Shown here: positions 9,200 to 59,796 of the stretch, piece by piece | How positions within the stretch are numbered: position 1 is the stretch's first letter | Layout of the letters: each line of letters starts with the position of its first letter | Source: Girardia tigrina | Lineage: Eukaryota | Reading direction: 5' to 3' | Assembly (NCBI GenBank): GCA_001938485.1 | Contig: MQRK01248532.1 | Span: 11,730 to 73,996 of the forward strand | Length of the DNA: 62,267 nt | The notes under the pieces: model-generated | The model's input: the letters and a program-made list of their open reading frames with translations, nothing else | Told to the model about the DNA's origin: nothing | Databases searched by the model: none | Program-made: the position numbers and the translations under genes

Positions 9200-11396
9200 T
9201 ACAATCTTTTTAGAATACTTAAACAAATAATAATCACAACTTTCCCCTCTTTTATAATTCGTTATTTACTTTCTTAATCCACTCAATTCTTCGACGAATT
9301 ATGTTTCCATCTTTCAAATTCTGTAGTTCCAATTGGTGTGGCGATATATGTCTTAAAATTTGGTACGGTCCATCGAATGGGAAAGTGTCCTTTCTCTGTT
9401 TTGTAGGATCTTGTTTTACAAAGACTTTCTGACCATCCTTGAAATGTCGATTTGTTCTCTTCTCTCTCTCCCAACTTTCCATTCGTCTTACCTTCATCTT
9501 GATCACGTTGCTCTCTTCCGTTTTAGCTATTCCTGCTACCGCATGTAAGTTTATTTTTCTACCAAACACAACTTCGAAGGGTGAATATCCGGTCGTACTC
9601 TGAACTGTTGCATTTAGACAGAATTCTATCTTCGGAACAATTTGCCACCATGATCGTTTGTTTGTGTCTCCTCTGCTTGTTACTATCATGTCTCTCACTG
9701 TTCGAATAGTTCTTTCTGCCAACCCGTTTGATTGATGTTGAAATGGGTTACTAAATCTTTGTTCGATTCCATATTTCCTGTACAAATCTTTAAATTTTCC
9801 GCCAGTAAAACATTTTCCATTGTATGTTAATATTGTTTTTGGCTTCCCATATCTATATATCCATTTTATCAACACGCATTGAACTATGGTGTCTTCGTTT
9901 TAAGTTCTAATCTCTGTCAAAGAGACCAATTTTGAAAACTGGTCCACCATGACCAATAGATATGGGTACATGCTATTCTTGTCACCCACATATGCGATAT
10001 CCATCACGACTTGCTCTAAAAACTCGTCACTTCTTATTGGAATCAACTTCTCTTTTGTTTTTTCACTTGGAAATTTTCTGCGTATACATTCTTGACATTC
10101 TCCTATAACGATATGTACCTCTTTCGCTAAATCTGGTAGCATAAAATGATTTTGGATATACTTCTTTGTCTTTTTGATACCTACATGACATAAATCTCTG
10201 TGTATTTTCCTGATGAAATCTATTCTAATTTGCTTCGGAACCAATGGTAACACACAATTTCCTTCTTGCATACCCCATAACCCATTCTGATAAACTAATT
10301 GGTCATGTAGTTGTAATAACTTCTTGGTGATTTCATTCTTTACACCTTCTGCCATCTCCTGTATTTGTTTCAACTGGTTCAACTCTGAGCACTTTTCTTG
10401 TTCGTCTTTTATCCATTGAATTGTAGACTGAATCACCACTGTATTTATGTGTTTCACCCTTGCTTTTGTTATTTTGGTTCTTCGTGTTTTGTTTCACATT
10501 GTGACCAAACGTCGTCGTATAGCCGTGATAATCCATCTGCATTTCCACGTTCGTCACCTTTTCCATACTTCAAATCAAAGTCAAAATCCGCCATGTTTGC
10601 TAACCATGTCTGGAATTGAGGAGTTATTGGTTTGGAAGTACTCTTCATATACACCAGTGCTTTATGATCAGTTCTTGTTGTAAATCGCTTGCCATATAAA
10701 TATTGTTTGAGATGTAACATGAACTCTTGTAATGCTAATAGTTCCCTTCTTGTCACACAGTACCCTTTTTCATGTGTAGTTAAAGTCATCGATGCATACG
10801 CGATTACTACTTCTTTCTCTTCTGATATCTGACTAAGAACTGCTCCTATCGATCCGAATGATGCATCTGTGTCTAAGATGAAATTATTATTCGGGTTCAC
10901 AAATGCTAATATTGGTGCACCACATAGCTTTTGCTTCAATTCGTTAAAACTTCTGTCGAACTCGTCTGACCAAAATATTTCTTAACATTTTCCGCTGTAT
11001 GCACTGTGCAAAGGTGCTGCTAATTCTGAGTAATTCTTGATAAATCGTCGATATTAGTTACACAGACCTAAAAATGCTCGTAAATTTCGAGTACACTTTG
11101 GTATCGGAAAATTTTGAATTTCTGCCACTTTCAATTTATTTGTTGAGATACCTTCTTTGTTAATTGTATGTCCCAGAAAGACCAGCTCTCCCACTCCGAA
11201 TTTGCATTTCCCTCGATTGACTTTTAAACCTACTTTCTTCAGTCTATTCAGTACTTCTTCTAATAGTCTCATATGATCCTTCATTGATTTTGAGTAAATT
11301 AAGACATCATCTAGATATATTACTACTCCAGAGAATAGTAAATCTTCAAATATTTATAATCTTTTTAGAATACTTAAACAAATAATAATCACAACA
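9200..11396 (-). mobile_element. Internally deleted Ty3/Gypsy LTR retrotransposon (RT-RNaseH-integrase)
   Basis: VIYLDDVL, FLGLCN, LDTDAS/ELLA/TDHKAL/ADGLSR, HHCC zinc finger, SNGLAER, GPY. Purine tract AAAAGAGGGGAA before an LTR start; the first ~38 bp of the LTR are directly repeated at 9203-9240 and 11358-11395. Confidence 0.9.
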
Positions 11397-11660: not shown

Positions 11661-13705
11661 AACATGATTAATAGACAAAGTGAAGAATATTTTTAGTCGA
11701 ATGTCATTAAATTTCTTTGGAAATGTTATGAAGATCTCAGACGTCATTGTCAGAAGTGAATGAGCAACAATGTTCATGTATTGAGAAATGCCTCTCTGTT
11801 ACATTGTTATTCTGTTTTAAAAATTTCATTTCATTGTCTTTTTCTTTTCTGTTCGAATCTAAAGACTCCTTGGAAATATCATGTATGTTCCATGCAAATA
11901 CAATCAGATGAATTTTATTTGTTCATCTCAAGTGTTTAACTGAAGCCTTTCATTTCAACAACCGATTATTTCCACAAACCCGTATGAGAAGTGCTAGGAT
12001 TTTGGGGAGCTCACTTAAATTTTTGAATTTTAGTATTTAAAGTCTCTAAAAGAAAATTTCAAAATATTTAAAAATTTGTCTTTGTAAATTATAACCTTAA
12101 AAATTATATAATAACAAAATGAAAAAGTTTAATTTAAGATTTTTTTCAAATAAAAGAAAATATATGTTTAACGATTAAAATGAAAACTTTATAATTGAAA
12201 AATTTCCGATATGAAGATTTGTAAAATGATGATTTTAATTTTAATTTTAAAATTTTAAGGATAAAATTTCAATAATGTTGTAAAATTAATTTTAAAGATT
12301 TCTAAATTGGATAATAAAATAAAAGAATTTCAATGAAATTTTTAAAGGATAAATTTTAATAAAAATAATGTTGTAAAATTAATTTTGAAAATTATAAAAT
12401 TAAAGAAATAATTAATTAAAGTATTCGTATTTATATTTCATTATCTTTATATATAAATAGATCGTGCAAAAGAAAACTTGTTCCTCGAATATTTTTTTGA
12501 AAAATATGTTATTGTTTTATATTTAATAAAATTTTGGTGTTATGACTTCAACTTTTGATATCGAATCTAACCAGAAACATGTTGATTAAATTCTACGAAA
12601 AAAATCGTAAGAAAAAGATAATACTGGTATAAAAATATTTATCTATTTGATATGTTTTAAATAAATCGTTATAGAAATATATAAATACATTCATTAAATA
12701 TAAACACGTTTTAAAAATTATTTTTACATTTAATTAAATTTTGACATTGTTTTATTTCGACAAACCTAATGATAATTTGATAGATTTTCATGTTTGTATT
12801 TATTCTTGTCAATTAATTTGTCATTTTATCGCTATTATACTTAATTTTTTATTATTTCATATCTAAATTGTTAATAATTTAGTAAATATCCATAAAGTGT
12901 TTATGTTTGTTTTTCTTATTTTATTTGAAAAATATTTTTGTTGACGAATATTAATAGTAAATAAATTACATTTTGTAAATAAAATAAGGAAATATTTTAT
13001 TGATGTTGAAAAAACATTTTATTTATAATTGATAGTTAAATTAAATTCCCAAAATTTATCTTCATATTTAATTATTATAATATAATTAATAATTATTATT
13101 TGAATTCCTCATTATTTGAAATCATAGTTTGTTATCTTAGACAAGATTTTTAGCATAATGAATGACTTAAATAATACTCAAACATTCATCAATCAAATTT
13201 AGTATTTACAACTTTATAATGCAACTTTATTATTAAAATAAAATTCTGTAGGTTATGGGCTCCAAAGTGATTCATAACTTTTCATGATGACCTAAAGATC
13301 AATAACAAATAATTGAATAAACAATTTTATTTTTGGAAATAGTACTCTAGCGTAACACTGCTAAGCTGCATTACTTATAGGTATTCTTGGGAATCTAATA
13401 TTAAACAACATGAATCCATATGTACGAAACCAGGAAAGTTAATAAAATACACTAATAATAATTCACAAAAAAATAATGAAATGAGATCAGGGATGAAACA
13501 ATGGGGTTCGCAGTGGCACCAAATGTTAATTTTATACGATTTCATTATAATTTATTTCTTTTTCTCGTTGAATAATATTGTGTTCTAGTTATTGCACTTT
13601 ACTAAAATACAAGGAAACCAATATCAGAAATTATTATTTTATAAGAAGTCCATGTGTGATAAAGCTATGAAAACCTTTCTTTAGACGAAAAAATCTAGCA
13701 AATAT

Positions 13706-15727
13706 TGTGAAAAACCGAAAGTGTCTTCACTTTTTTAAATAAAAATCCAAGAATAATACTAAAAATATATTTCGAACGACTAACAATTTAACTTTTTATT
13801 TCATCAATTTATAAATCAATTTAATTTTATTATAGGAATTAAATCCTATATCCAAGAGTAGGTCATTACACAAGCCCCCCTTTTGTAAGTGGAGCGTTAC
13901 GTTGTTTCAAACACTTTGAAAATTATGTTCGAATCTTGATTTGATTTTGTTAAGCAATTCGTTATTTAAATGTGTGAAATCAATTTCCTCAAATGGTTTT
14001 TTTGCACAAAATCTGATTCGTTTCTGGTTTACAATTGTTTCGATGCCATTTATGATCAAAAGGAAAGAATTTTTTTGATTTTTCACAATGTTGTATGGTC
14101 CGTCGAATCTGCCAGTTATGTTATTTCTGACTAAAGCTCCAAAGTCAGAAAAAGTATTTGTAAATGTTTCATTGATTTCCTCAGTTAACAATTTGTTGAT
14201 GTTCTTAATTTGACCTACGGAAGTGATGTTGTTAACTTGATTTTGTTTTTTTATAAATAGATGATATTCCTTTTGATAATCGTGTTTTATGCAACTGCTG
14301 ATGTCTGTGGTGAAAGCCGTCTCTTGATTTGAAATATGAAGATTTGTTTGACTAAGAACATGATTTTCTTTAATTTCTTCGTGATGTGTGTAATTGTCCT
14401 TGTGGGTTCTCGATGATAAGTTTTCAGTCGAAGTGGTCTGTACTATCTTGTTCTGAAATGTTTTGTTAAAAGTTTTAACGTCATTTTGAGGAATATGTAA
14501 AATTTCGTATCCTGGGGTCATTGGACTCAACAAATGTGTTGTGGTAGGTGTTACATTAGGAGGAGAAAGATTCTGGGATTTTGTAGTAGCCACCCCCTTT
14601 AATGTTTGAGCAGTCGTATGGGAACTATTATTACTAGAAGATTGTAAATGAGATTGAGGAGCTGCTGTTAATCCAGCTAATGTAACACATGGTGTTGCAG
14701 TGGACGAATCAGTAGACTTCGGTTTAGTTTGTAGAGATGCCATTTGTTGTGCATAATTAGGGTTAGGAATGACGGCGGCAGGAATTTGATGAACGTACTG
14801 AGGTTGCGGTAAATACATCGTTGTGGCCGATTGAGGTAACATCATAGTTGCATATTGTGGAGACATCACTGTTAAAGCTGAATAATGTTGCACAGGAATC
14901 TGACATAAAGTTGATCTATTTTGCAAAGCATATGGAACTGGTCCATTATATGAGACTGTTCCAGAAATTTCTTGTCGAGGATATAAATGTTTCTTTCTTA
15001 CAGCTTGTTTAATGTTCAATTTTCTCTCTTTAAAGATCAATGTTTCAGATTCATTCTTGGTGAGATTTTCAGCAATTTCTTCNNNNNNNNNNNNNNNNNN
15101 NNNNNNNNNNNNNNNNNNNNNNNNNNNNNNNNNNNNNNNNNNNNNNNNNNNNNNNNNNNNNNNNNNNNNNNNNNNNNNNNNNNNNNNNNNNNNNNNNNNN
15201 NNNNNNNNNNNNNNNNNNNNNNNNNNNNNNNNNNNNNNNNNNNNTGTACCAATTTTCGGTATTGATACGTGAGAAAAAGAATTGAGCTGATTTATTTGAT
15301 TGATCTTGTTATGCTTCACTTTATTTATAGTTTTAGAAATTCCCAATGCCAATAAAGAGTATTCAACATTTTTTTGTACATCGAAAAGCAGTCTTTTTAA
15401 TAGAAAATTGTATTTTACGTTTAACTGCGATACATTATCTTGTTGATCTTGATATGTGGATAATAATTCCTGGATTAACTGATTGAAATTTCTTTTTGAA
15501 GAACGTTTCTTTCTTAATGGAGGCATAATCTCCTTCTTTCTTTTTTTTCTTCTTACACCAGTTGTGAAAAACCGAAAGTGTCTTCACTTTTTTAAATAAA
15601 AATCCAAGAATAATACTAAAAATATATTTCGAACGACTAACAATTTAACTTTTTATTTCATCAATTTATAAATCAATTTAATTTTATTATAGGAATTAAA
15701 TCCTATATCCAAGAGTAGGTCACTACA
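13706..15727 (-). mobile_element. Young non-autonomous LTR retroelement (~2.0 kb)
   Basis: 165-bp TG...CA LTRs at 13706-13870 and 15563-15727 with one mismatch; 5-bp TSD AATAT. On the minus strand, PBS-like TGGTGTAAGAAG follows the 5' LTR and PPT AAAAGGGGGGG precedes the 3' LTR. Confidence 0.93.
13907..15526 (-). CDS. Unknown ORF filling the LTR element; basic N-terminus, Q/P/T/S-rich middle, integrase-like GPY/F tail
   Basis: Open on both sides of the N gap (15083-15243); MPPLRKKRSSKR start; RFDGPYNIVK...IVNQKRIRF near the C-terminus; no CCHC, DTG, YxDD or DDE motif visible. Confidence 0.65.
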   Translation of the reverse strand: MPPLRKKRSSKRNFNQLIQELLSTYQDQQDNVSQLNVKYNFLLKRLLFDVQKNVEYSLLALGISKTINKVKHNKINQINQLNSFSHVSIPKIGTXXXXXXXXXXXXXXXXXXXXXXXXXXXXXXXXXXXXXXXXXXXXXXXXXXXXXXEEIAENLTKNESETLIFKERKLNIKQAVRKKHLYPRQEISGTVSYNGPVPYALQNRSTLCQIPVQHYSALTVMSPQYATMMLPQSATTMYLPQPQYVHQIPAAVIPNPNYAQQMASLQTKPKSTDSSTATPCVTLAGLTAAPQSHLQSSSNNSSHTTAQTLKGVATTKSQNLSPPNVTPTTTHLLSPMTPGYEILHIPQNDVKTFNKTFQNKIVQTTSTENLSSRTHKDNYTHHEEIKENHVLSQTNLHISNQETAFTTDISSCIKHDYQKEYHLFIKKQNQVNNITSVGQIKNINKLLTEEINETFTNTFSDFGALVRNNITGRFDGPYNIVKNQKNSFLLIINGIETIVNQKRIRFCAKKPFEEIDFTHLNNELLNKIKSRFEHNFQSV

Positions 15728-15869
15728 AATATAATAAAATCTTCTTAAGTCTGGTACTTTAAAATAATGACTTGGACTATATGTTTTATTATTTTTTTCA
15801 ATAAAACTTTTATTTGCCACCCAATATTGATGAGACAGAATAATTATCTTTTTGTTTTTTTAATAATAT

Positions 15870-16104
15870 ATTCAAGAAAGCAGATAGTAAAAAGTGCAGC
15901 GACTTTAGAACGATTAGTTTGATCAGTCACGCATCAAAGGTTTTGTTGAAACTGTTACAAAAAAGAATCACACCGAAAGTGGAGCATCTCAGAGAGATGC
16001 AGGCAGACTTTAGAAGGGACCGCGGTACTATGGAGCAGATAACTAACCTAAAACTAATTTGTGTGAAAACCAGAGACCACAAAAGAATATTTTGTCATAA
16101 CTAG
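15870..16104 (+). mobile_element. RTE-like LINE RT fragment
   Basis: KKCSDFRTISLISHASKVLLKLL...QADFRRDRGTMEQI. Confidence 0.8.
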
Positions 16105-29751: not shown

Positions 29752-31239
29752 CTACTGGACAAAATATTTGCAATTACATTTTCGTGCATTTTTAAAAGTT
29801 TTAGGTAAATTAGTTCTTTTTTAAACTAAAGTCAACCTATTGATGTATTATAATATACATTGACACATTTGTTTGNTTTAATAGTTTATTAGATAATAAT
29901 GAATTTGTGTATTTTTGTAATGTTTTTTTGGCCACATTTTTGCACTCATTTAATTTTTTTATTAGTAATAAAAATAAAACTAAGTAACATTTATTATACG
30001 CAATAATGCACCATCATTCTTTAATAATAGACACACATTTTCTTTAAAATGTCTATATAAGTTTGATAAAATACCAAACTCTTCATCATTGATTTTATCC
30101 ACTTCATGACAAATTCCAGACCATAGTGACTCTTTGCCATCAAATTGTGGACCATTATATAATCTCTGCTTAATAATACTCCAGACTTTCTCTATAGGAG
30201 ATAAGTCAGAGCTATGAGCTGGCCAGGGTAATATGTCTACTTTTTCAGCAGTAAGCATCTCAATGGTTTTCTTGCTTGTGTGCGCACGCGCGTTGTCTTG
30301 TTGGAATAAAAATGAATCTATTTCATTCTTTANCAACGGAAATATGTCGTCCTTCAACATATCACAATAGGAATTAGAATTAATGGTGCCTTCAACTCTT
30401 CTAACAAGCAATGGTCCATCACGGCTAATGCAACCCCAAATCATTATCGAGCCACAACCAAACGGTCGTTTTGCACGCTGTGTGTTATTATCTTTGCTCC
30501 ATGACATAAAGTTATCGTTGCCGTCGAGAGAAAAGCGGCACTCATCAGAAAAAACATTTTTGTCAAAATCGACATTTTCAATAATCCATGACCGCACTAT
30601 TTCTACTCTTTTGGCCTTCTGATTGTCTGCCAATTGTATCCTTTGACATCTCCTACGATAACTCAATCCCATTGAACAAATACGCCTTCGTATCGTGCGG
30701 GTGGACACATTGTTGGACAATATATTGCCAATTGCCACTGATGTCACTTTTTTATGACCCTTTTCTAAAGACACTATAGCTTTTTTAATTTCATTGTTTA
30801 TTTTATCTTTCTTCNNNNNNNNNNNCCTTGGAGGATTAAAACCTCTTGCACCACTTGCGACACTATAAATCGTCCTCAGGCTAACATTTAGGGTCTCAGC
30901 TATGACCTTTTTGGAGGTTCCTTTCAATAAATAATTTTTAATTATATCAATTTTTTCAACGCTTAGCGTCATTCTAAATATCTAAAAATAATATATCTAT
31001 CAAAAGAACATTAAATAATTAATTACAAAACATTAAAATATAGTAATGCAAAAATATGGCCAAAAAAACATTACAAAAATACGCAAATTCATTATTATTT
31101 ATTGAACTACTAAAACAAACAAATGTGTCAATATATATTATAATACATCAATAGGTTGACTTTAGTTTAAAAAAGAATTAGTTTACCTAAAACTTTTAAA
31201 AATGCACCAAAATGTAATTGCAAATATTTTGTCCAGTAG
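29752..31239 (-). mobile_element. Full-length Tc1-family transposon with ~195-bp TIRs
   Basis: TIRs begin CTACTGGACAAAATATTTGCAATT; TA flanks on both sides. Confidence 0.95.
29980..30972 (-). CDS. Tc1 DD34E transposase, apparently uninterrupted (330 aa)
   Basis: FSDE, FQQDNA and DLSPIE with 34 residues between the second D and the E; a few N bases. Confidence 0.9.
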   Translation of the reverse strand: MTLSVEKIDIIKNYLLKGTSKKVIAETLNVSLRTIYSVASGARGFNPPRXXXXKKDKINNEIKKAIVSLEKGHKKVTSVAIGNILSNNVSTRTIRRRICSMGLSYRRRCQRIQLADNQKAKRVEIVRSWIIENVDFDKNVFSDECRFSLDGNDNFMSWSKDNNTQRAKRPFGCGSIMIWGCISRDGPLLVRRVEGTINSNSYCDMLKDDIFPLXKNEIDSFLFQQDNARAHTSKKTIEMLTAEKVDILPWPAHSSDLSPIEKVWSIIKQRLYNGPQFDGKESLWSGICHEVDKINDEEFGILSNLYRHFKENVCLLLKNDGALLRIINVT

Positions 31240-31951: not shown

Positions 31952-33311
31952 AGAGGTGTGTACCAAAAGTTCGCGGACTGATAAGTAATAACAAATTCAA
32001 AAAGTTTATTCCAGTTAACAAAATTGATCAATCCTCATCAGAATCGCTATTGAACTTTTCCATATAATCATCATTCAGTTTCACACACTTTTCCCATTTC
32101 TATGTCAACTTCATAATACCATTATCGAAGAAAATACACGGTGTCTCCGCAATCCACGCACTGACTGCTGTTTTCATTTCATTCAAATTCGTGAAATGAT
32201 GTCCTCGAAGGGGTTTCTTCAATGCCGAGAAAAGGGGATAATCACTCGGCGCGAGGTCCGATGAATATGGGGAGTGAGGTAAAAGTGTCCAGTCCATGAT
32301 GAGGCATGGTACTGACAGTCAAATTCACTGTAGGGGGACGTGCGTTGTCCTGTTGCAATAATGGGATGGATGACAACTTTCCCCACCGTTTGTTCTTGAG
32401 AGCTTGGCGCAAATCTTTGTCGAGCAGGTTCGTGTAGTATGCGCTGTTGATGGTGACCCCCTTTGGCAGGTAATCAATGTGAATTATCCCATCACAGTCC
32501 CAAAAGACTGTTACCATTACCTTCCCGGCTGAAGAGAGGGTCTTCGCCTTTAAAGGGGGTCTGTCAACTAGGCGGCACCATTGACGGGAATGGTCCTTGG
32601 TTTCAAGAAGATAAAACGGGAGCCACGTTTCGTCCACTGTCACAATCCGTAACCAGAACGCCTCACCGAGATCATTAACCAGTTGCAGCAGTTCTTGACA
32701 AGCAGACTTTCGATTAGCCTTCTTGTCGTTGTTGAGGAGGCGCGGCACCCACATGGCAGTCAGTTTCCTCATATGCAGCTCCTCTGACATGATGCGGTGC
32801 ACCTGACTTTTTGAGAAGCCTGTAATAGCTGCTATCTCACGGATAGTGAGACATCTGTCACCAAGAATGACTTACTCGATAACTTTCACATTTTCTTGAC
32901 ATCCGGACGTTGTTGGTCGCCCACTGCGTTCATCATCCTCCAATGATTGACGCCCTGTCTGGAATGGTTGCACCCACTTAAAGACAGTCGTTCTTCCCAT
33001 AGCGGCAATACCAAAGACGCGGTGTAAACGGTGCACAATATCTACAGTGGGAGTGTCTTCCTTCCAGAGGAAATAGATGATTGCTCGTTGAGATTTCACT
33101 GCCTCTTCCATACTAACTACAAGAGAGAAAAATGACAAATTAATACATTCGTATGTCACACACATGCCAACGGGCAGCCAATGAGAGTTCACCTCAATTA
33201 CAATTGGTTGGTTACCCCTCATGTCATCGTACACACACCACGCGTTACAGTCACGCACACACGTGACCACGCCATATTCTCCTAGTCCGTGAACTTTTCG
33301 AACACCCCTCG
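31952..33311 (-). mobile_element. Full-length mariner with disrupted transposase
   Basis: Imperfect 28-bp TIRs (CGAGGGGTGTTCGAAAAGTTCACGGACT), TA flanks; WVPR, TVDETW, QQDNA, PYSSDLAPSD across three ORFs. Confidence 0.93.
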
Positions 33312-37096: not shown

Positions 37097-38375
37097 ATAT
37101 GGCAAAAAAGTTTTTTTCCGTTACTCCTCTGTATTTCTAATTTCTAAATGAAACAAATATAAAACAACAAATATATACTTCTACACAACAGTATATTCAC
37201 CATTACAACAAATAACATTTTCAGCATGTGTAAAAAGTTTATCAAATTCATGTGAAAGTTTTTCTCGTGAGAGATTCCTCATAATATCACTGACCGCTTG
37301 TAAGACATCTTCCTCACTTGCAAATGATGTTGTTCTTAGTGATCCTTTTAAAAATTTGAATAGCCATTTGTCACACTGATTTAAATCAGGCGAATAAGGA
37401 GCTTGCTTAATCAATTCAACATGTTTTTTCTGAAAACACTCCGTGGTAAACTTGGATGAATGTGGTCGAGGATTATCATGCTGCCAAAGAATTTCTCGCA
37501 TATTCACTCGTCGTCTGTCTTTACTAAACTTCGTAAGACTATTTTGAATGAATTCTGTATATCTTTCAGAATTGATAGCATCACCAGATTTTGTTACTTC
37601 GATGTGAAACTTACCATCAGCTGTGAATGCCAAAATAAGCATTGTTCTTCGTTCAAATTTTTTTGTTTTGAACAGCACGTGGTCGAGGAACATCTCCACT
37701 TGCCCATTTCTCGTAAGTCAGATCTCCATAATGTAGGGGAAAATGATATCCACGTTTCATCAACTGTTATCCATAGTTTCATCAAGTATTCTTTCCAATA
37801 TTTTGGCACAAGTTGCAAAAAATTTCTTGAGGATTCAATACGTTGTCGTTTGTGATCATCAGTCAGTTGATAAGGCGCCAAGATGCTCAAAATCTTCTTC
37901 CTGTTCAAATTTTCATGAAGGATTGTCCTTATTGATTCTTTGTTGACATCAAGCATTTCACTTATGTGTCTTAATGATATTTTTTCATCCTACTCAATTA
38001 GTTCCTAACTTTTTCAATCAAATCATCAGTTGTTGTTGCTGAAGGACGTCCACTTCGTGGGTGATCGTCCAACGATAGCCGCTTGCCTGAGGTAAAATCA
38101 GAGAACCAGTTTCTTATTGTGCGTTCCGTTGAGCAATCATCAGGGAAGGCATCGAACAACTTTCTATAGGTTTCAGCTGCAGTCGTTCCATTTTTCCACT
38201 CAACATATGCATATAATCGACTGTTAGATTTTGAAAACTCCATTTTTACCGACAACCTTTTAAATCTAATATGAAAAGTGATCACATGATACAAATTAAT
38301 ATATATATATATATATATATATATANNNNNNNNNNNNNNNNNNNNNNNNNNNNNNNNNNNNNNNNNNNNNNNNNN

Positions 38376-43284: not shown

Positions 43285-46200
43285 TAAATATTTCGGTGTT
43301 GTTATCGTTTTTCCTCTACAAGCTATCATCGGATTTATGTCGAAAATTCTTAAGTCGATAAAATTTTCGACGGTAAAAATTACGATGTGGTGGCCTGGAT
43401 CGAAAAATTAACGACCGTCGCGAAAATTACGAAGGAATGTATAACAGAAGTCATTTCGATGCTTCTGGAGAGCGCAGCTTATGATGTGTGAAACAACCTA
43501 AGTGATGACTCGAAGGAGGAACAGGCTGAAATAGAGAAAGCGTTGTTCGAGGCTTTCGGTGTGTCGAAATTCGACTGTTTTGAATCATTACGCGAAAGGA
43601 AGTTGAGGCGAGACGAGTCGTTGGACGAATGCGCTCAGGCCCTCCGGAAATTGAGTAAAATGTCCGGCGTGAGCGGGAGCGAGAAGCTGCTTGTGTTTTT
43701 TTTGGTGACCGGATTGCCGAGCGATATCAGGACGAAGATTCAAACGATGATCAGGATTCAAGACCTTGATTGTATAAGAATCAATTTTATTTGTCAGCTT
43801 AGGTCCTTTGCGGTTCCATTTCCATTCCACCGTCCACCTTCCATGACTAAATTTTGCGCTAAAGTCTAAATTTTCAATGGATATCTCTTTTCTGTCTACG
43901 ATCTCGCAATCCTTTTTGCAAAAAACGTACTTCTCAGATTCCGGTTTTTTCCGATTTCTTTTGACTTATGAAAGTAAATATTTCCCTTATGATTGATACA
44001 AAGCCCGCCTAATTTCTCTATTGAATCCATTCCCAAAATCACATTGATATTATCAAAAATAAATGAAACGATCATACACGAAACCTCGATTTTCAGCATC
44101 TCTTCTACTTCTATAATCACATCGCACGTGCCTCTCGTGATTAACGTTGCTCCTCCTATCCCAAAGAGACAAAGTGTCGTTGGATGACGTTGTCGAGAAA
44201 GCTCGGATTCTTTGGCAAGAGGCAAGAAAGAATGATGGAAGTGTGGCCTTTGCGACCAGATCATATCGGCAAGATGTTACGTGTTTTAGATGCGGAAAGA
44301 GAGGACACTTCGCGAGATATTGTCACGTACAATGGGTGTCGCCAGCTAGGTGTTATTCCTGCGGAGAAAGCGGTCATAACGCGAGGTCGTGCAGTACCCA
44401 AATTAAGCCTCCGTTAACTGATTTTAAAAAGAATATAACTGGCGCCATGAAACTTCTGTCGAACTCAAGTTCACCGGCCGAGACTATATTGAGTGTGAAC
44501 GGGAGACGGGCGCGTTGTTTAATAGACACGGGAAGCAGCGTGACAATAGTTCGAGAGGCGCTCTGCGGCGTAGAGAAGCGATGGTCTCATAAGTTATATG
44601 GGATCTTCGGAATGCGTATTTGCAGTTACATGTCAACGAGAATCTTTGGAAATATCAGAGGGTATGTTACGATGGGGTCGTATACAATTTGACAAGGCTT
44701 CGTTTCGGTTTGGCGTCGGCTCCACATATTATGACGAAAGTCCTGGAACGTGTGTTGAGCCTCGAAGAAAGAATACGTTCCGGAACCAGCATTTACGTTG
44801 ACGGCATTTTAGTAGACGGATCAGTTGTTTCGGTAGAAGAAGTTGTTGAGCATCTGAAGTGTTTCGGTTTGGAGTGCAAAGAAACGACGGATTTCATCGA
44901 ATCGAAGTTGTTAGGTCTACAAATTTATGAAAATGATGGAACAGTCATGTGAACCAGAGGAAGGACCGTTCTGGAAATTGTCGGTCGTTTGACAAAAAAG
45001 GGTGTGTTTTCGTTGTGTGGACAGTTAATTAGTCTTTATCCAATCGCAGGATGGTTGAGGGTATCTGCAAATTTCATAAAAAGAAAATGCAATCGATATC
45101 GTTGGCAAGAATCAGTATCTGAAGATATACGAACAATGTTAGAAGATACAATCCAACGAGTGAGGAATGACGATCCAGTAAACGGTGTCTGGCACGTCCC
45201 GAAAAGTGAGAAATCTGGTAAAGTATGGTGTGATGCGACTAAAATTGCAATAGGATACATATTGGAGATAGCAGGAAACATTGTAGAGGATGGCTGTTGG
45301 TTACGACGCAAGGTTGAATGTGCACACATCAATGTTGCCGAACTAGAAGCGGTCGTGAGGGAAATAAATTTGGCGTAAAAATGGGGAGTGAGGGAATTTT
45401 ATATCGTTACTGACTCTGCATCTGTCTTTGGCTGGTTGAGTGGGGTTCTGCACAGAGAAAAGAAGATCAAAGTAATCGGAATGAATGAGATGTTAGTCAG
45501 AATGAGATTAACGACCATCGTGGAGATCTTGGAAAGTTATAACGTGAAATGGAAGGGTAATTCAGAATTGTAACAAATGTAATTCGATAGACCCGCATTC
45601 CGTTCGGATCGAGAAGGGACAGCTAACAAAGGACGAGGTGTGGAATACATTGACGACGGATTTCACGCATCACAATGGGAAGCTCTTCGTGACAATCATA
45701 GACTGTTGCTCGCGTTATTCTATCTAGAGAAAGGTGAACGAGGAATCATCAGAAGAGCTATTAAGGCATTTCTGTCAAATATTTTAAGAGTTTGGGCCGC
45801 CAAAGTTGGTTTTAGCAGACAATGGGAAAGCTTTCAGATCTGAGGCGTTTCAGGAGCTGTGTAAAGAGTGGAAAGTAAAGTTACATTTCCGATGCGCCTA
45901 CAAGCCGAGCGGCAATGGCGTGGTCGAACGGGTGCATCGGACGGTAAAGAGAACAATGGTGAGAGCAGCCATAAACTCACGTGATTCCGTTTATTGGTAT
46001 AACGTCACCCCTCGAACTGGAAAGAGGACATCTCCGCAGGAGGAGCTGTTCCGGTACTGATGGAGGATGTTAAGACAGGGAGAGGTTGCACCGAATGTAC
46101 GAGACGTCGAAGCGTGTTACACTGTTGGTAAGCGGGTATACGTGAAACCTCCAAATATTCGCTGTTCTGAAGCGTGGCAGAAAAGGACAATAACCGGCGT

Positions 46201-46592
46201 GAATTCCAATTTTAGCGTGGATGTGAACGGAATCTCTCGACGCGTGAGAGATATAATGAAAGTGAGCGTACCGACCGAGAATGCCGTTGAGTTGTATGGA
46301 GGAAGGAATGATTCGAGTTCCGACGAGCTGCGGGAGGGAGAGTTATCAAACGACGAAATCGATTTAGCGTTGTTAGATGAAGGAATTGGATTGCGACGAT
46401 CGACTCGGCGTAGGGGACCGCCTGCATATTTGAGGAACGACGAGTTGAATCAAAGCTCTGAAGAGGGAATGTAGCAATATGGTTGATATGGCATTTGTTT
46501 AGATTGACATAAATGCGCGCAATATGACTCGACTGAAATGTTGCAGTTACATTGAATAAATATTTCGGTGTTGTTATCGTTTTTGCTCTACA
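43285..46592 (+). mobile_element. Degenerate, rearranged Gypsy-type LTR retrotransposon
   Basis: Partial 5' LTR 43285-43320; 3' LTR 46470-46592 (TG...CA) after PPT GAAGAGGGAA; gag with two CCHC knuckles, LIDTGS protease, RT (LRFGLASAP, YVDG), RNase H (WCDAT, HINVAELEA), integrase (ADNG, GNGVVER). Confidence 0.92.
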
Positions 46593-54629: not shown

Positions 54630-55928
54630 TTAGGTGTACAACTAATTAATTTCGTATTTGTTACGAAATAACCTTATATTCGTATTTGTTACCTCATTTC
54701 ATATTTGTTACCTCATTTCGAATTTGTTACTAACCTCATATCTATTTATGTAGTCAATAGTCAATTTTATTGAATTTTAGTAAACACACAAATTTTTTTT
54801 ATTGCAGTCAAAATGTCAAATTACGTTCCAACAAAACAACATTTGCGGGGAGGTTTGCTTTTGTTATTTAATTTAAGGAAAAGTGCAACAGAAGCACATC
54901 GTTTACTCTCAGAAGCTTATCCTGAATATGCTCCAGAGGTTAGAGTATGTCAGCAGTGGTTTGCACGATTTAAAAGTGGCGATTTTGACACAGAAGACAA
55001 AGAGCGATCAGGTACATCAAAACAGTTTGAAGACAAAGAATTGGAGGCATTACTCGATCAATATCCATGTCAAACTCAAGAAGAACTTGGAAAAAACATT
55101 GGAAGTCACTCAACAAGCCATTTCTAAACGTTTAAAAGCAGCCGGATACATTCAGAAACAAGGAAATTGGGTGCCACACGAATTGAAGCCGAGAGACNTT
55201 GAGAGACGATTTTGCATGTCTGAAATGCTGCTTAATCGCCACAAAAAGAAACCGTTTTCACATCGTATTGTCACTGGCGATGAAAAGTGGATTCATTACG
55301 ACAACCCAAAGCGTAAAAAATCATATGTGAAGCCGGGCCAACCAGCCAAATCGACACCAAAGCCGAATATTCATAGTTTGAAGGTAATGCTCTGTATTTG
55401 GTGGGATCAGAAGCGTGTGCTGTACTATGAGCTGTTAAAATCGGGCCAGACGATCACGGGAGAGCTATACAGGCAACAATTGATACGTTTGAAGCAAGCA
55501 ATAGCCGAAAAACGGCCAGAATGGGCGACCAGACACGAGAAATTGATTTTCCATCATGACAATGCTCGGCCACATGTTGCAGTACCGGACAAAAATTATT
55601 TGGAAAATGCCGGATGGGAAATTCTACCTCACCCGCCTTATAGCCCAGACATAGCTTCTTTTGATTACCACTTGTTTCGGTCGATGTAGAATCACCTTTC
55701 TGGAATACGGTTCACCAATGTTGAAGGTATTAAAAAATGGCTTGATGACTTTCTCGGCGCAAAAGATGAGAAATTTTTTTTGGGATGGAATCCATAAATT
55801 GCCTGACAGATGGGAAAAGGTTGCCGCTTCCGATGGACAATATTTTGAATAAAATATTTTTTCACTTTTATATTTAAATAAATGGTTTTTTTAACAAAAA
55901 ATACGAAATTAATTAGTTGTACACCCAA
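54630..55928 (+). mobile_element. Full-length Mos1-like (mauritiana subfamily) mariner, frameshifted
   Basis: TIRs TTRGGTGTACAACTAATTAATTTCGTAT, TA flanks, ~1.3 kb; MSNYVPTKQHLR start, WVPHEL, TGDEKW, HHDNA, PPYSPDIA. Confidence 0.95.
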
Positions 55929-58199: not shown

Positions 58200-59796
58200 A
58201 GGTATTTTGGTTGAAGTTTGTCGTAGCATGGCAGTTATTAAGGACAGAGTCAAAAAACATTTGAAATTCCTTCATAGATTCGCACTATTTCAATTCTAGG
58301 AATGACTACGCAGCACTCGGTGAACTGCCTAATCAGGAAGCTATTCAAAAAAGAATTAATCGAACAAGAAATGTAGTGAATAATACACCAGCACAACCTC
58401 TAGATGGAGCTTCTATCGAAATAAATGAAAATTATAAAAATTATGAAGATGAATCATTTTTATTATCTGATTCTGGATATGGCAATCGAGACAGAATTTT
58501 AATTTTTGCTAAAGGTAGTGTGAGAAATTGGATAAAACAAGTTGACAAAATCTTCGTCGATAGAACTTTTAAATTAGCTCCAAAACTTTTTGCCCAAATT
58601 TTTGTTATCATGTCTCAATGTGGTAATTATGTCGTACCAATTTTATACGCTCTTCTACCAAATAAAAAGGAGCAGACGTATACTCGAATGATTCAAATGA
58701 TAATTGAATCTTGGCCTACATTTCACCCTACAGCAATATCATTAGACTTTGAGGTTGCAATGATAAATGCTTTCTCTTTTGCTTTTCCTAATACCAGCTT
58801 ACAAGGATGTTTATTCTATTTAGTTCAAAACATAAGGCGTAAACTGGTAGACGAAGGCCTAATCAGTCGCTGTAATAAAGATGCAAATTTTGCTCTTATG
58901 ACGCGCATGATATCTGGCTTGGTTTTTGTTCTAATAGAGGAACTTGAAAGATCATTTGGAGTCTTGAGTAATAGTTTAAGTCAAGAATTTGCTAATATTT
59001 TAGATTACTTTGAAGATTATTATATTAGAAGAATGCTGTATAATAATGTACTTCGCCAGCCTCTTTTCAACCCGTCCATTTGGTCGTGTTATTTGAGAAC
59101 AATAAATAAGAATGTAGGACTTTGCCGAAGCTACCCACAGAAAATTGAATATTGAATTCGGGGCAGACCATCCTTCTCTTTGGAAGTTCATAGATGGATT
59201 GCGTATGATCCAAAAATCAGTTGATCAATTATATGAACAATCTCTTCGAGGAGATCAGCATACACCAAAACGAAAAAAGTATAAATTAGTTGATGAACGA
59301 ATTTTTGAAGTCGTCAATGACTTCAAAAATAGAGAAATACTAAAATTTGTATGAGGAATTGCATACAACTTTGTTATGGATTAAATAAAAGTATATTTTC
59401 TGAATTATTTTGTGTTTATATTAAAAATAATGTTGAGGTAGTTATTTAAATATATTAATAATTATTTATAATTTTTAATCAAAATTTTACATTACATGCG
59501 GATGGATCAATAAGTCTGTGACATGTTCCGTTTCCCACGTTTTAACTATAATTGCAATTCTATTCACATAAACGAACTTCTATAAATATACAATTCCGCT
59601 ATTTTACGCAAGTTGTGTCTCTTAATTTATGTTTGACAGCCATTGAAAGCAGACTAAAATTCCTAATTCATTTCAAATTATTTCATTTTATGCCAAAAAT
59701 CCTAATTAATAACAAATTATTTCATTTTATTCCTATTTCATTTAAATTCTAATTTCTGGCGTCGATATGTCCCGGCGTCGAAATGTTCCGTACCCG
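58200..59796 (+). mobile_element. MULE (Mutator-like) transposon, 5'-truncated and degenerate
   Basis: FVDRTFK, LYALLPNK, DFEVA, GCLFYL, HPSLWKFI; terminal sub-repeats GGCGTCGA(T/A)ATGT at 59758-59790. Confidence 0.88.

Follow-up and report, generated by a model that had tools for sequence, protein, structure and literature searches.

A planarian family of Gypsy mini-elements with a captured boule1 RRM, apparently in the position of the Gag knuckle

Host genes captured by animal LTR elements are usually short-lived cargo. TRIM and LARD elements usually have a non-coding interior, the plant element Bs1 of maize is a chimera of three genes, and LINE-1 ORF1p combines an RRM with cis preference. 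The route by which host mRNA enters an LTR element is already known from the LTR-mediated retrocopies described by Tan et al. (2016, PMC5131818), where Bs1 is also mentioned as an LTR element with host mRNA pieces. As described there, a partial, intron-free host mRNA lies in sense and in frame in the element, fusion points show microsimilarity or short non-templated filler, further retroposition takes place, and the copies are young and few. Non-autonomous LTR elements with a single ORF are likewise known; plant TR-GAG elements are reported to be short and still transposing, with LTRs, PBS and PPT, a full Gag and no pol enzymes (PMC8704663). Host-like domains fused in frame have been described in the giant planarian Gypsy element Burro/GYPSM1, which is autonomous and exceeds 30 kb (PMC6431247).

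The window analyzed here, a stretch of 62,267 nt from the genome of Girardia tigrina, contains on its minus strand an element that a first-pass annotation had presented as a small LTR element with an unfamiliar ORF (Table 1). The two LTRs, which run TG...CA on the minus strand, are identical at 164 of 165 positions, and the flanking AATAT forms a 5-bp target-site duplication (TSD). The PBS starts two bases past the 5' LTR; its 18-nt form, which older copies have, complements the 3' terminus of a tRNA-Leu(CAG) gene of the source genome. Re-measurement of the coordinates bore out the annotated LTRs, TSD, PBS and PPT. The ORF extends from the ATG at 15526 to the TGA at 13909-13907 and keeps its frame across a run of 162 N (15083-15244, earlier given as 15083-15243). 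The 391 codons open after this run have a chance probability of about 1e-12 at this base composition, and the long open interior had rightly been judged unlikely by chance. A Pfam search with both visible ORF parts of the window copy returned nothing above cut-off. The window copy is a very young member of a family of non-autonomous Gypsy mini-elements.

Table 1. Features of the element in the window
Feature	Position	Strand	Remark
TSD AATAT, one copy	13701..13705		
3' LTR	13706..13870	-	
Polypurine tract (PPT)	13872..13884	-	
Single ORF	13907..15526	-	539 codons, including 54 under N
Integrase C-terminal tail with GPY/F-like motif	13910..14146	-	matches the end of the L129 integrase ORF, 35% over 95 aa
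Element-derived low-complexity linker	14147..14478	-	65-70% nt identity to boule-less mini-elements of the L073 type
Captured spliced boule1 mRNA, RRM and downstream region	14479..15259	-	spans the N run 15083-15244
Intron-free exon junctions in captured boule1	15049, 14989, 14970, 14863, 14572	-	
Filler at 5' capture junction	15260..15268	-	9 nt
N-terminal module, basic start and predicted long helices	15269..15526	-	pLDDT 39-53, low confidence
Primer-binding site (PBS)	15549..15560	-	11 of 12 nt agree with the family PBS
5' LTR, TG...CA	15563..15727	-	165 bp
TSD AATAT, other copy	15728..15732		

Other mobile sequences were observed in the same window. A reverse transcriptase fragment (15844-16104; RVT_1, 1e-5), probably a LINE remnant, lies 116 nt from the element. 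Two decayed Gypsy-type elements are present, one on the minus strand with RNase H and integrase pieces (9255-10981) and one on the plus strand with CCHC knuckle, protease and RT pieces (43492-46471). Remnants of Tc1/mariner transposases and a single MULE transposase domain lie at 29983-30981, 32245-32871, 37184-37989, 54774-55686 and 58265-59152.

The ORF did not stay unfamiliar: its central part matches host boule1 mRNA, with 79% identity over 603 nt after the N run, and the annotated Q/P/T/S low-complexity region, although present, turned out to be largely the Boule C-terminal region. In sibling copies most of the Boule RRM lies where the window copy has the N run; evidence on the RRM comes from these siblings, since most of the RRM position in the window copy is N. 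The protein of one sibling, L028, gave Pfam RRM_1 at 1.6e-15, and its top matches among 65 proteins were Boule proteins of flatworms or RRM proteins from the same group, Smed Boule1 being 74% identical to the element RRM protein over 102 aa. The element protein carries a single RRM, for which Boule is the closest match. A search with the Boule1 N-terminus, a part missing from the elements, hit one place in the source genome, indicating that host boule1 is single-copy. The host protein is 98-100% identical to Smed Boule1 over the first two matched exons, which points to a Schmidtea-like planarian, and the gene has eight GT-AG introns in its modelled part, most of which are joined across in contigs of three runs (X4, X16 and X19). 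When seven siblings and the window copy were aligned to host boule1, the introns were cleanly absent (intron-free junctions: 7/7 in L028, five in the visible part of the window copy), identifying spliced boule1 mRNA as the source.

The captured Boule sequence runs from PKIG on, in frame after the N-terminal module and the filler. This filler is identical in 35 of the 38 copies with a readable junction and carries one change in the other three, and four derived RRM residues (K39N, T62I, I66L and Q90K) are common to three subfamilies and absent from the host. Combined, the common filler and the shared residues point to a single capture. The 3' capture junctions differ among subfamilies and appear to have been overwritten by later recombination. 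That a spliced boule1 mRNA was captured and amplified is, in our judgement, practically certain, and the suggestion of a trans-mobilised mini-retroelement with an accessory or captured protein is supported, the captured part now being Boule.

Several individual sequences deserve mention. A truncated copy, L157, has the host lysine where the main subfamilies have asparagine and is possibly an early branch. The deposited Smed Boule1 protein P0068 departs from the host frame directly behind the RRM, at the 19-nt micro-exon of the gene model, and may be an exon-skipped form. On a short contig (L138), a boule-element fragment is accompanied by two tRNA-Leu(CAG) genes at a distance of about 550 nt. 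An 875-nt insert in the RRM of another copy (L004:1119-1982), very near a host exon junction, was considered as a retained boule intron and rejected: its long inverted ends and 9-bp duplication mark a DNA-transposon insertion, likely a non-autonomous one of MULE type.

The extent of the family was assessed in the source genome with three queries. The LTR gave 649 first-look candidates, 40 of which were scored and yielded 41 matches at 96-100%; the interior gave 535 candidates (40 scored); and the RRM gave 594, of which the 150 scored were 66-100% identical and nearly all uninterrupted by introns. The boule-carrying family thus comprises well over a hundred copies (at least 150 scored). Siblings with two LTRs mostly measure 2.01-2.04 kb, each with its own 5-bp TSD, and 3 of 9 lone-LTR loci inspected were solo LTRs with a TSD. 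In the subfamily of the window copy, the span corresponding to the N run was measurable in 35 of 39 siblings and amounted to exactly 162 nt in 22 and to 161-163 nt in 28; the remaining seven showed deletions, insertions or, in one case, a duplicated-copy artefact. Gag-pol sequence hidden under the N run, a concern of the first-pass annotation, was rejected on these grounds. LTRs of L021-L036 are 79-99% identical to the window LTR while the interiors are at 94-96%, so that LTRs diverge faster within one subfamily.

Among 81 loci examined, 63 align over at least 150 host boule1 codons and form groups of 40, 13, 5, 2, 1, 1 and 1 copies. All lie 17-19% (nt) from host boule1, from which it follows that the capture is old. 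A tree of 39 rows (the host, 15 of the 40-copy group and all other groups) shows three deep element lineages with long stems, each ending in recent bursts. In older subfamilies LTR pairs are 92-100% identical, and these subfamilies have different 3' halves. The Boule cassette therefore kept moving long after its capture and changed backbones.

Elements without boule clarify what the cassette probably replaced. A sister family (P0020; L041-L052) of about 1.8 kb and with different LTRs has an N-terminal module 91-93% identical (nt) to that of the boule elements; downstream of it lie a C-x2-H-x9-C-x3-C knuckle, a low-complexity linker and a GPY/F-like tail. The two types part after the same codon of this module, where the sister continues ...NSFSH-KFANY...CWYH-x9-C-x3-C and the boule elements ...NSFSH-VSI-PKIGT, that is, with nine filler bases and Boule. 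As judged from these alignments, the Boule cassette stands exactly where the sister elements carry the Gag CHCC knuckle, CX2HX9CX3C being given as the CHCC signature of CsRn1-like Gag (PMC2582038). No other cargo was found behind the N-terminal module in 20 further loci, all boule-type, sister-type or truncated. Further boule-less mini-families exist (L073-L092). Together with L041-L052 they are single-ORF LTR mini-families of 1.8-2.7 kb without capsid or enzymes, laid out as helical N-terminus, CHCC knuckle, linker and integrase tail; they have the tRNA-Leu PBS in common and have swapped modules among themselves. Weak signs of constraint, from small counts, were seen on their N-terminal and knuckle regions.

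The GPY/F integrase tail named in the first-pass annotation was recovered as a match to the integrase ORF end of the full-length element L129 (E 6e-14). L129 is young, with 547-bp LTRs 99.8% identical, and its integrase ORF (L129:5935-7029) contains two matches to the element tail, which suggests that a GPY/F-like C-terminal module has been duplicated. The source genome has full-length CHCC-Gag elements with the PBS of the boule elements (L124 and L127), and full-length Gypsy elements of this kind, with the same tRNA-Leu PBS, are the probable helper. The LTR search proposed earlier did yield siblings, but no helper sharing the window-type LTR was present among 20 full-length-type loci chosen by RT similarity to L080. 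The N-terminal module had no significant likeness to helper Gags (best E 0.17), in which a heptad-like stretch, recognized by eye, also precedes the knuckle. It belongs to no Pfam family and had three matches among 1.84 billion representative sequences, all members of its own family. A recognisable Gag at the N-terminus, named beforehand as counting against the first reading, was thus not found.

Selection was assessed between subfamilies, net of within-group diversity. dN/dS was 0.15 (0.06-0.35) and 0.12 (0.05-0.26) for the RRM, versus 1.00 (0.63-1.62) and 0.91 (0.58-1.55) for the rest of the captured Boule; dN was 0.068 in the RRM and 0.267 in the adjacent captured sequence of the same age, a fourfold difference. 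Counts of synonymous to nonsynonymous RRM variants were 37:99 among singletons and 15:7 among variants of at least four copies (p=3.6e-4), the same frequency test giving p=0.01 for the N-terminal module and p=1 for a downstream control region, and stops made up 51 of 899 singletons versus none of 162 widely shared variants (p=4e-4); these p-values are approximate, as sites were counted by simple NG86 and the copies are related. Private variants look neutral (0.5-1.4 by region). Low dN/dS is thus confined to the RRM and the N-terminal module.

The signal is unevenly distributed among subfamilies. On the stem of an older subfamily dN/dS of the RRM was 0.04, and 12 of the 15 shared synonymous RRM changes stem from this subfamily, whose shared variants are 12:4 (synonymous to nonsynonymous). 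On the stem of the window subfamily the ratio was 0.49 (0.12-3.1), not distinguishable from 1. Relative to the host, the RRM of the window subfamily is changed at 15 of 82 positions, some of them conserved in other Boule proteins, and the shared K39N and Q90K also fall at such conserved positions. As to the ORF itself, it was unbroken end to end in one of 22 siblings checked (L028) and broken in 21. The few unbroken copies include L028 and the window copy outside N, and the intact copies are young. In the young group, eight frameshift sites, in A-runs, and five stop sites are common to 2-6 copies. Broken sibling ORFs, named beforehand as a sign against the first reading, are thus the rule, but nearly every break is either private or located in an A-run, as decay after insertion would produce. 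Selection within the element is very probably what has kept the RRM.

Our main reading, to which we assign a probability of roughly 0.5, is that of a non-autonomous Gypsy mini-element in which the Boule RRM replaced the knuckle and was selected, likely for binding the element's own RNA. Capture would have occurred by a template switch of reverse transcriptase in germ cells, where boule is expressed, and mobilisation in trans would come from full-length Gypsy elements that have a CHCC Gag and share the tRNA-Leu PBS. A copy that depends on a helper can be selected only if it gains in cis, and the element protein would therefore have to favour its own coding RNA. An RNA-binding domain in the place of a nucleocapsid knuckle would most simply bind the element's own RNA for packaging, the helical N-terminal module docking on helper Gag and the RRM carrying the RNA into the particle. 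Cis RNA binding for packaging as the specific role of the RRM is somewhat short of an even bet. AlphaFold with a 10-row alignment predicted the RRM with confidence (pLDDT about 60-86), preceded by long helices of low confidence, and a fold search returned RRMs only, with DAZL-RNA structures among many matches. DAZ-type RRMs bind U-rich GUU motifs; no GTT excess was seen in element RNA. Runs X4, X16 and X19 hold element contigs, but slight DNA carry-over from hundreds of copies would give these as well, and they are not taken as a sign of expression. Smed-boule is described as confined to the germline and required by germline stem cells (PMC4858218), in keeping with capture and use in germ cells. 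A wider proposal is tentative: by exchanging knuckle for RRM, the helix and RRM fusion would claim its own RNA for the particle of the helper in germ cells, converging on the design of LINE-1 ORF1p, and protein or small RNA from the hundreds of copies may in addition act back on host boule1.

The main rival to packaging is translational self-promotion in germ cells. Here the RRM would be kept as a Boule-like translational regulator that boosts or stores the RNA of element or helper in germ cells before meiosis or that competes with host Boule, with no part in packaging. The same selection on the RRM, the predicted intact fold with DAZL-RNA structures among its matches, and the germline restriction and requirement of Smed-boule all fit such a function. 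The regions downstream of the Boule RRM are, however, expected to recruit partners, and in the elements the Boule region 3' of the RRM evolves neutrally. Exact replacement of the knuckle is not accounted for by this explanation, and a purely trans-acting product would be unprotected from cheating copies. We regard it as unlikely, yet as the most serious of the alternatives. The Boule piece could also be a passenger without a role, its frame staying open owing to destabilisation of the RNA by premature stops or to a need for the N-terminal module; the stem ratio of the window subfamily and the broken state of most copies would agree, as would the observation of Tan et al. that LTR retrocopies of young age frequently have an open frame just because of that age (PMC5131818). 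This capture, however, is old by its distance from the host, and a passenger explains neither the low dN of the RRM beside its captured neighbour nor the excess of synonymous shared variants in the older subfamily, which leaves the passenger explanation improbable.

Selection might instead act on the host, one or a few domesticated copies serving as extra boule genes with the other copies as their offspring. A few copies are unbroken and boule is an essential germline gene, in agreement with domestication. Against it stand at least three lineages that separated long ago, differ in their LTRs and 3' halves and have each undergone recent bursts, together with the youth of the intact copies and the similar constraint trend in boule-less sister families, again from small counts; we consider it highly improbable. 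Finally, the RRM could merely look conserved through repeated re-copying from host boule1 mRNA. Such re-copying would use the route of the capture itself, a template switch between co-packaged RNAs, and the families clearly swap 3' halves and LTRs. Nevertheless, synonymous distances of the RRM to the host (0.53, 0.82 and 1.08) are not below those of the rest (0.38-0.56), and the four derived residues shared by three subfamilies are absent from the host, so that re-copying is already largely refuted.

Returning to the reading of an RRM selected in the element, the donor gene, the capture junction, the boule-less parent family and the descendant subfamilies are all present in one genome, making the step from cargo to working part traceable, and the animal is a model in which RNAi and germline genetics are available. 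There are also practical consequences. Because 61 of the 63 copies have at least one exact 21-mer in common with the host boule1 coding sequence, cross-reaction with the elements could affect boule1 probes, RNAi and read mapping, and element-derived small RNAs could target this gene. No description of a boule-carrying element was found in the literature searched, which covered neither Repbase and Dfam nor supplements, where an unannotated entry may exist; the word 'boule' is absent from the main text of PMC11410931.

Compared with known systems, the boule elements differ from TRIM and LARD elements by a 539-codon ORF with signs of selection. They resemble LINE-1 ORF1p, described as a coiled-coil trimer binding nucleic acid (PMC3258132), in a helical N-terminus followed by an RRM, by analogy only, class and origin being unrelated. 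From the CsRn1-clade Gypsy elements PwRn1 and AgCR, as described in PMC2582038, they are set apart by a tRNA-Leu(CAG) rather than a tRNA-Trp PBS, by the lack of capsid, PR, RT, RH and IN core, and by the absence of the CX2HX9CX3C knuckle, present in the sister mini-elements and the likely helpers; the GPY/F motif at the integrase C-terminus is shared. As in plant TR-GAG (PMC8704663), a single ORF lies in a short non-autonomous element with LTRs, PBS and PPT, but a host RRM and an integrase tail are found in place of a full Gag, with no capsid-like part. Burro shares the in-frame fusion of host-like domains, those given in its description being AIR1, Smc, MATH, BIR, ankyrin and BCL2, RRM not among them (PMC6431247), whereas the boule element is 2 kb long and its donor gene is identifiable. 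Amplification with domain-specific constraint characterizes the boule elements, comparable evidence for Bs1 not having been met. The closest parallel is with the retrocopies of Tan et al. (PMC5131818), in whose main text the term 'purifying' does not appear. Partial intron-free mRNA in sense and in frame and further retroposition, here as many copies with their own LTR pairs and 5-bp TSDs, are common to both, and the 9-nt filler at the 5' junction may correspond to the short non-templated filler described there; those retrocopies are young and low in copy number, whereas the boule elements descend from an old capture and have reached at least 150 scored copies in several subfamilies, with one domain very probably under purifying selection.
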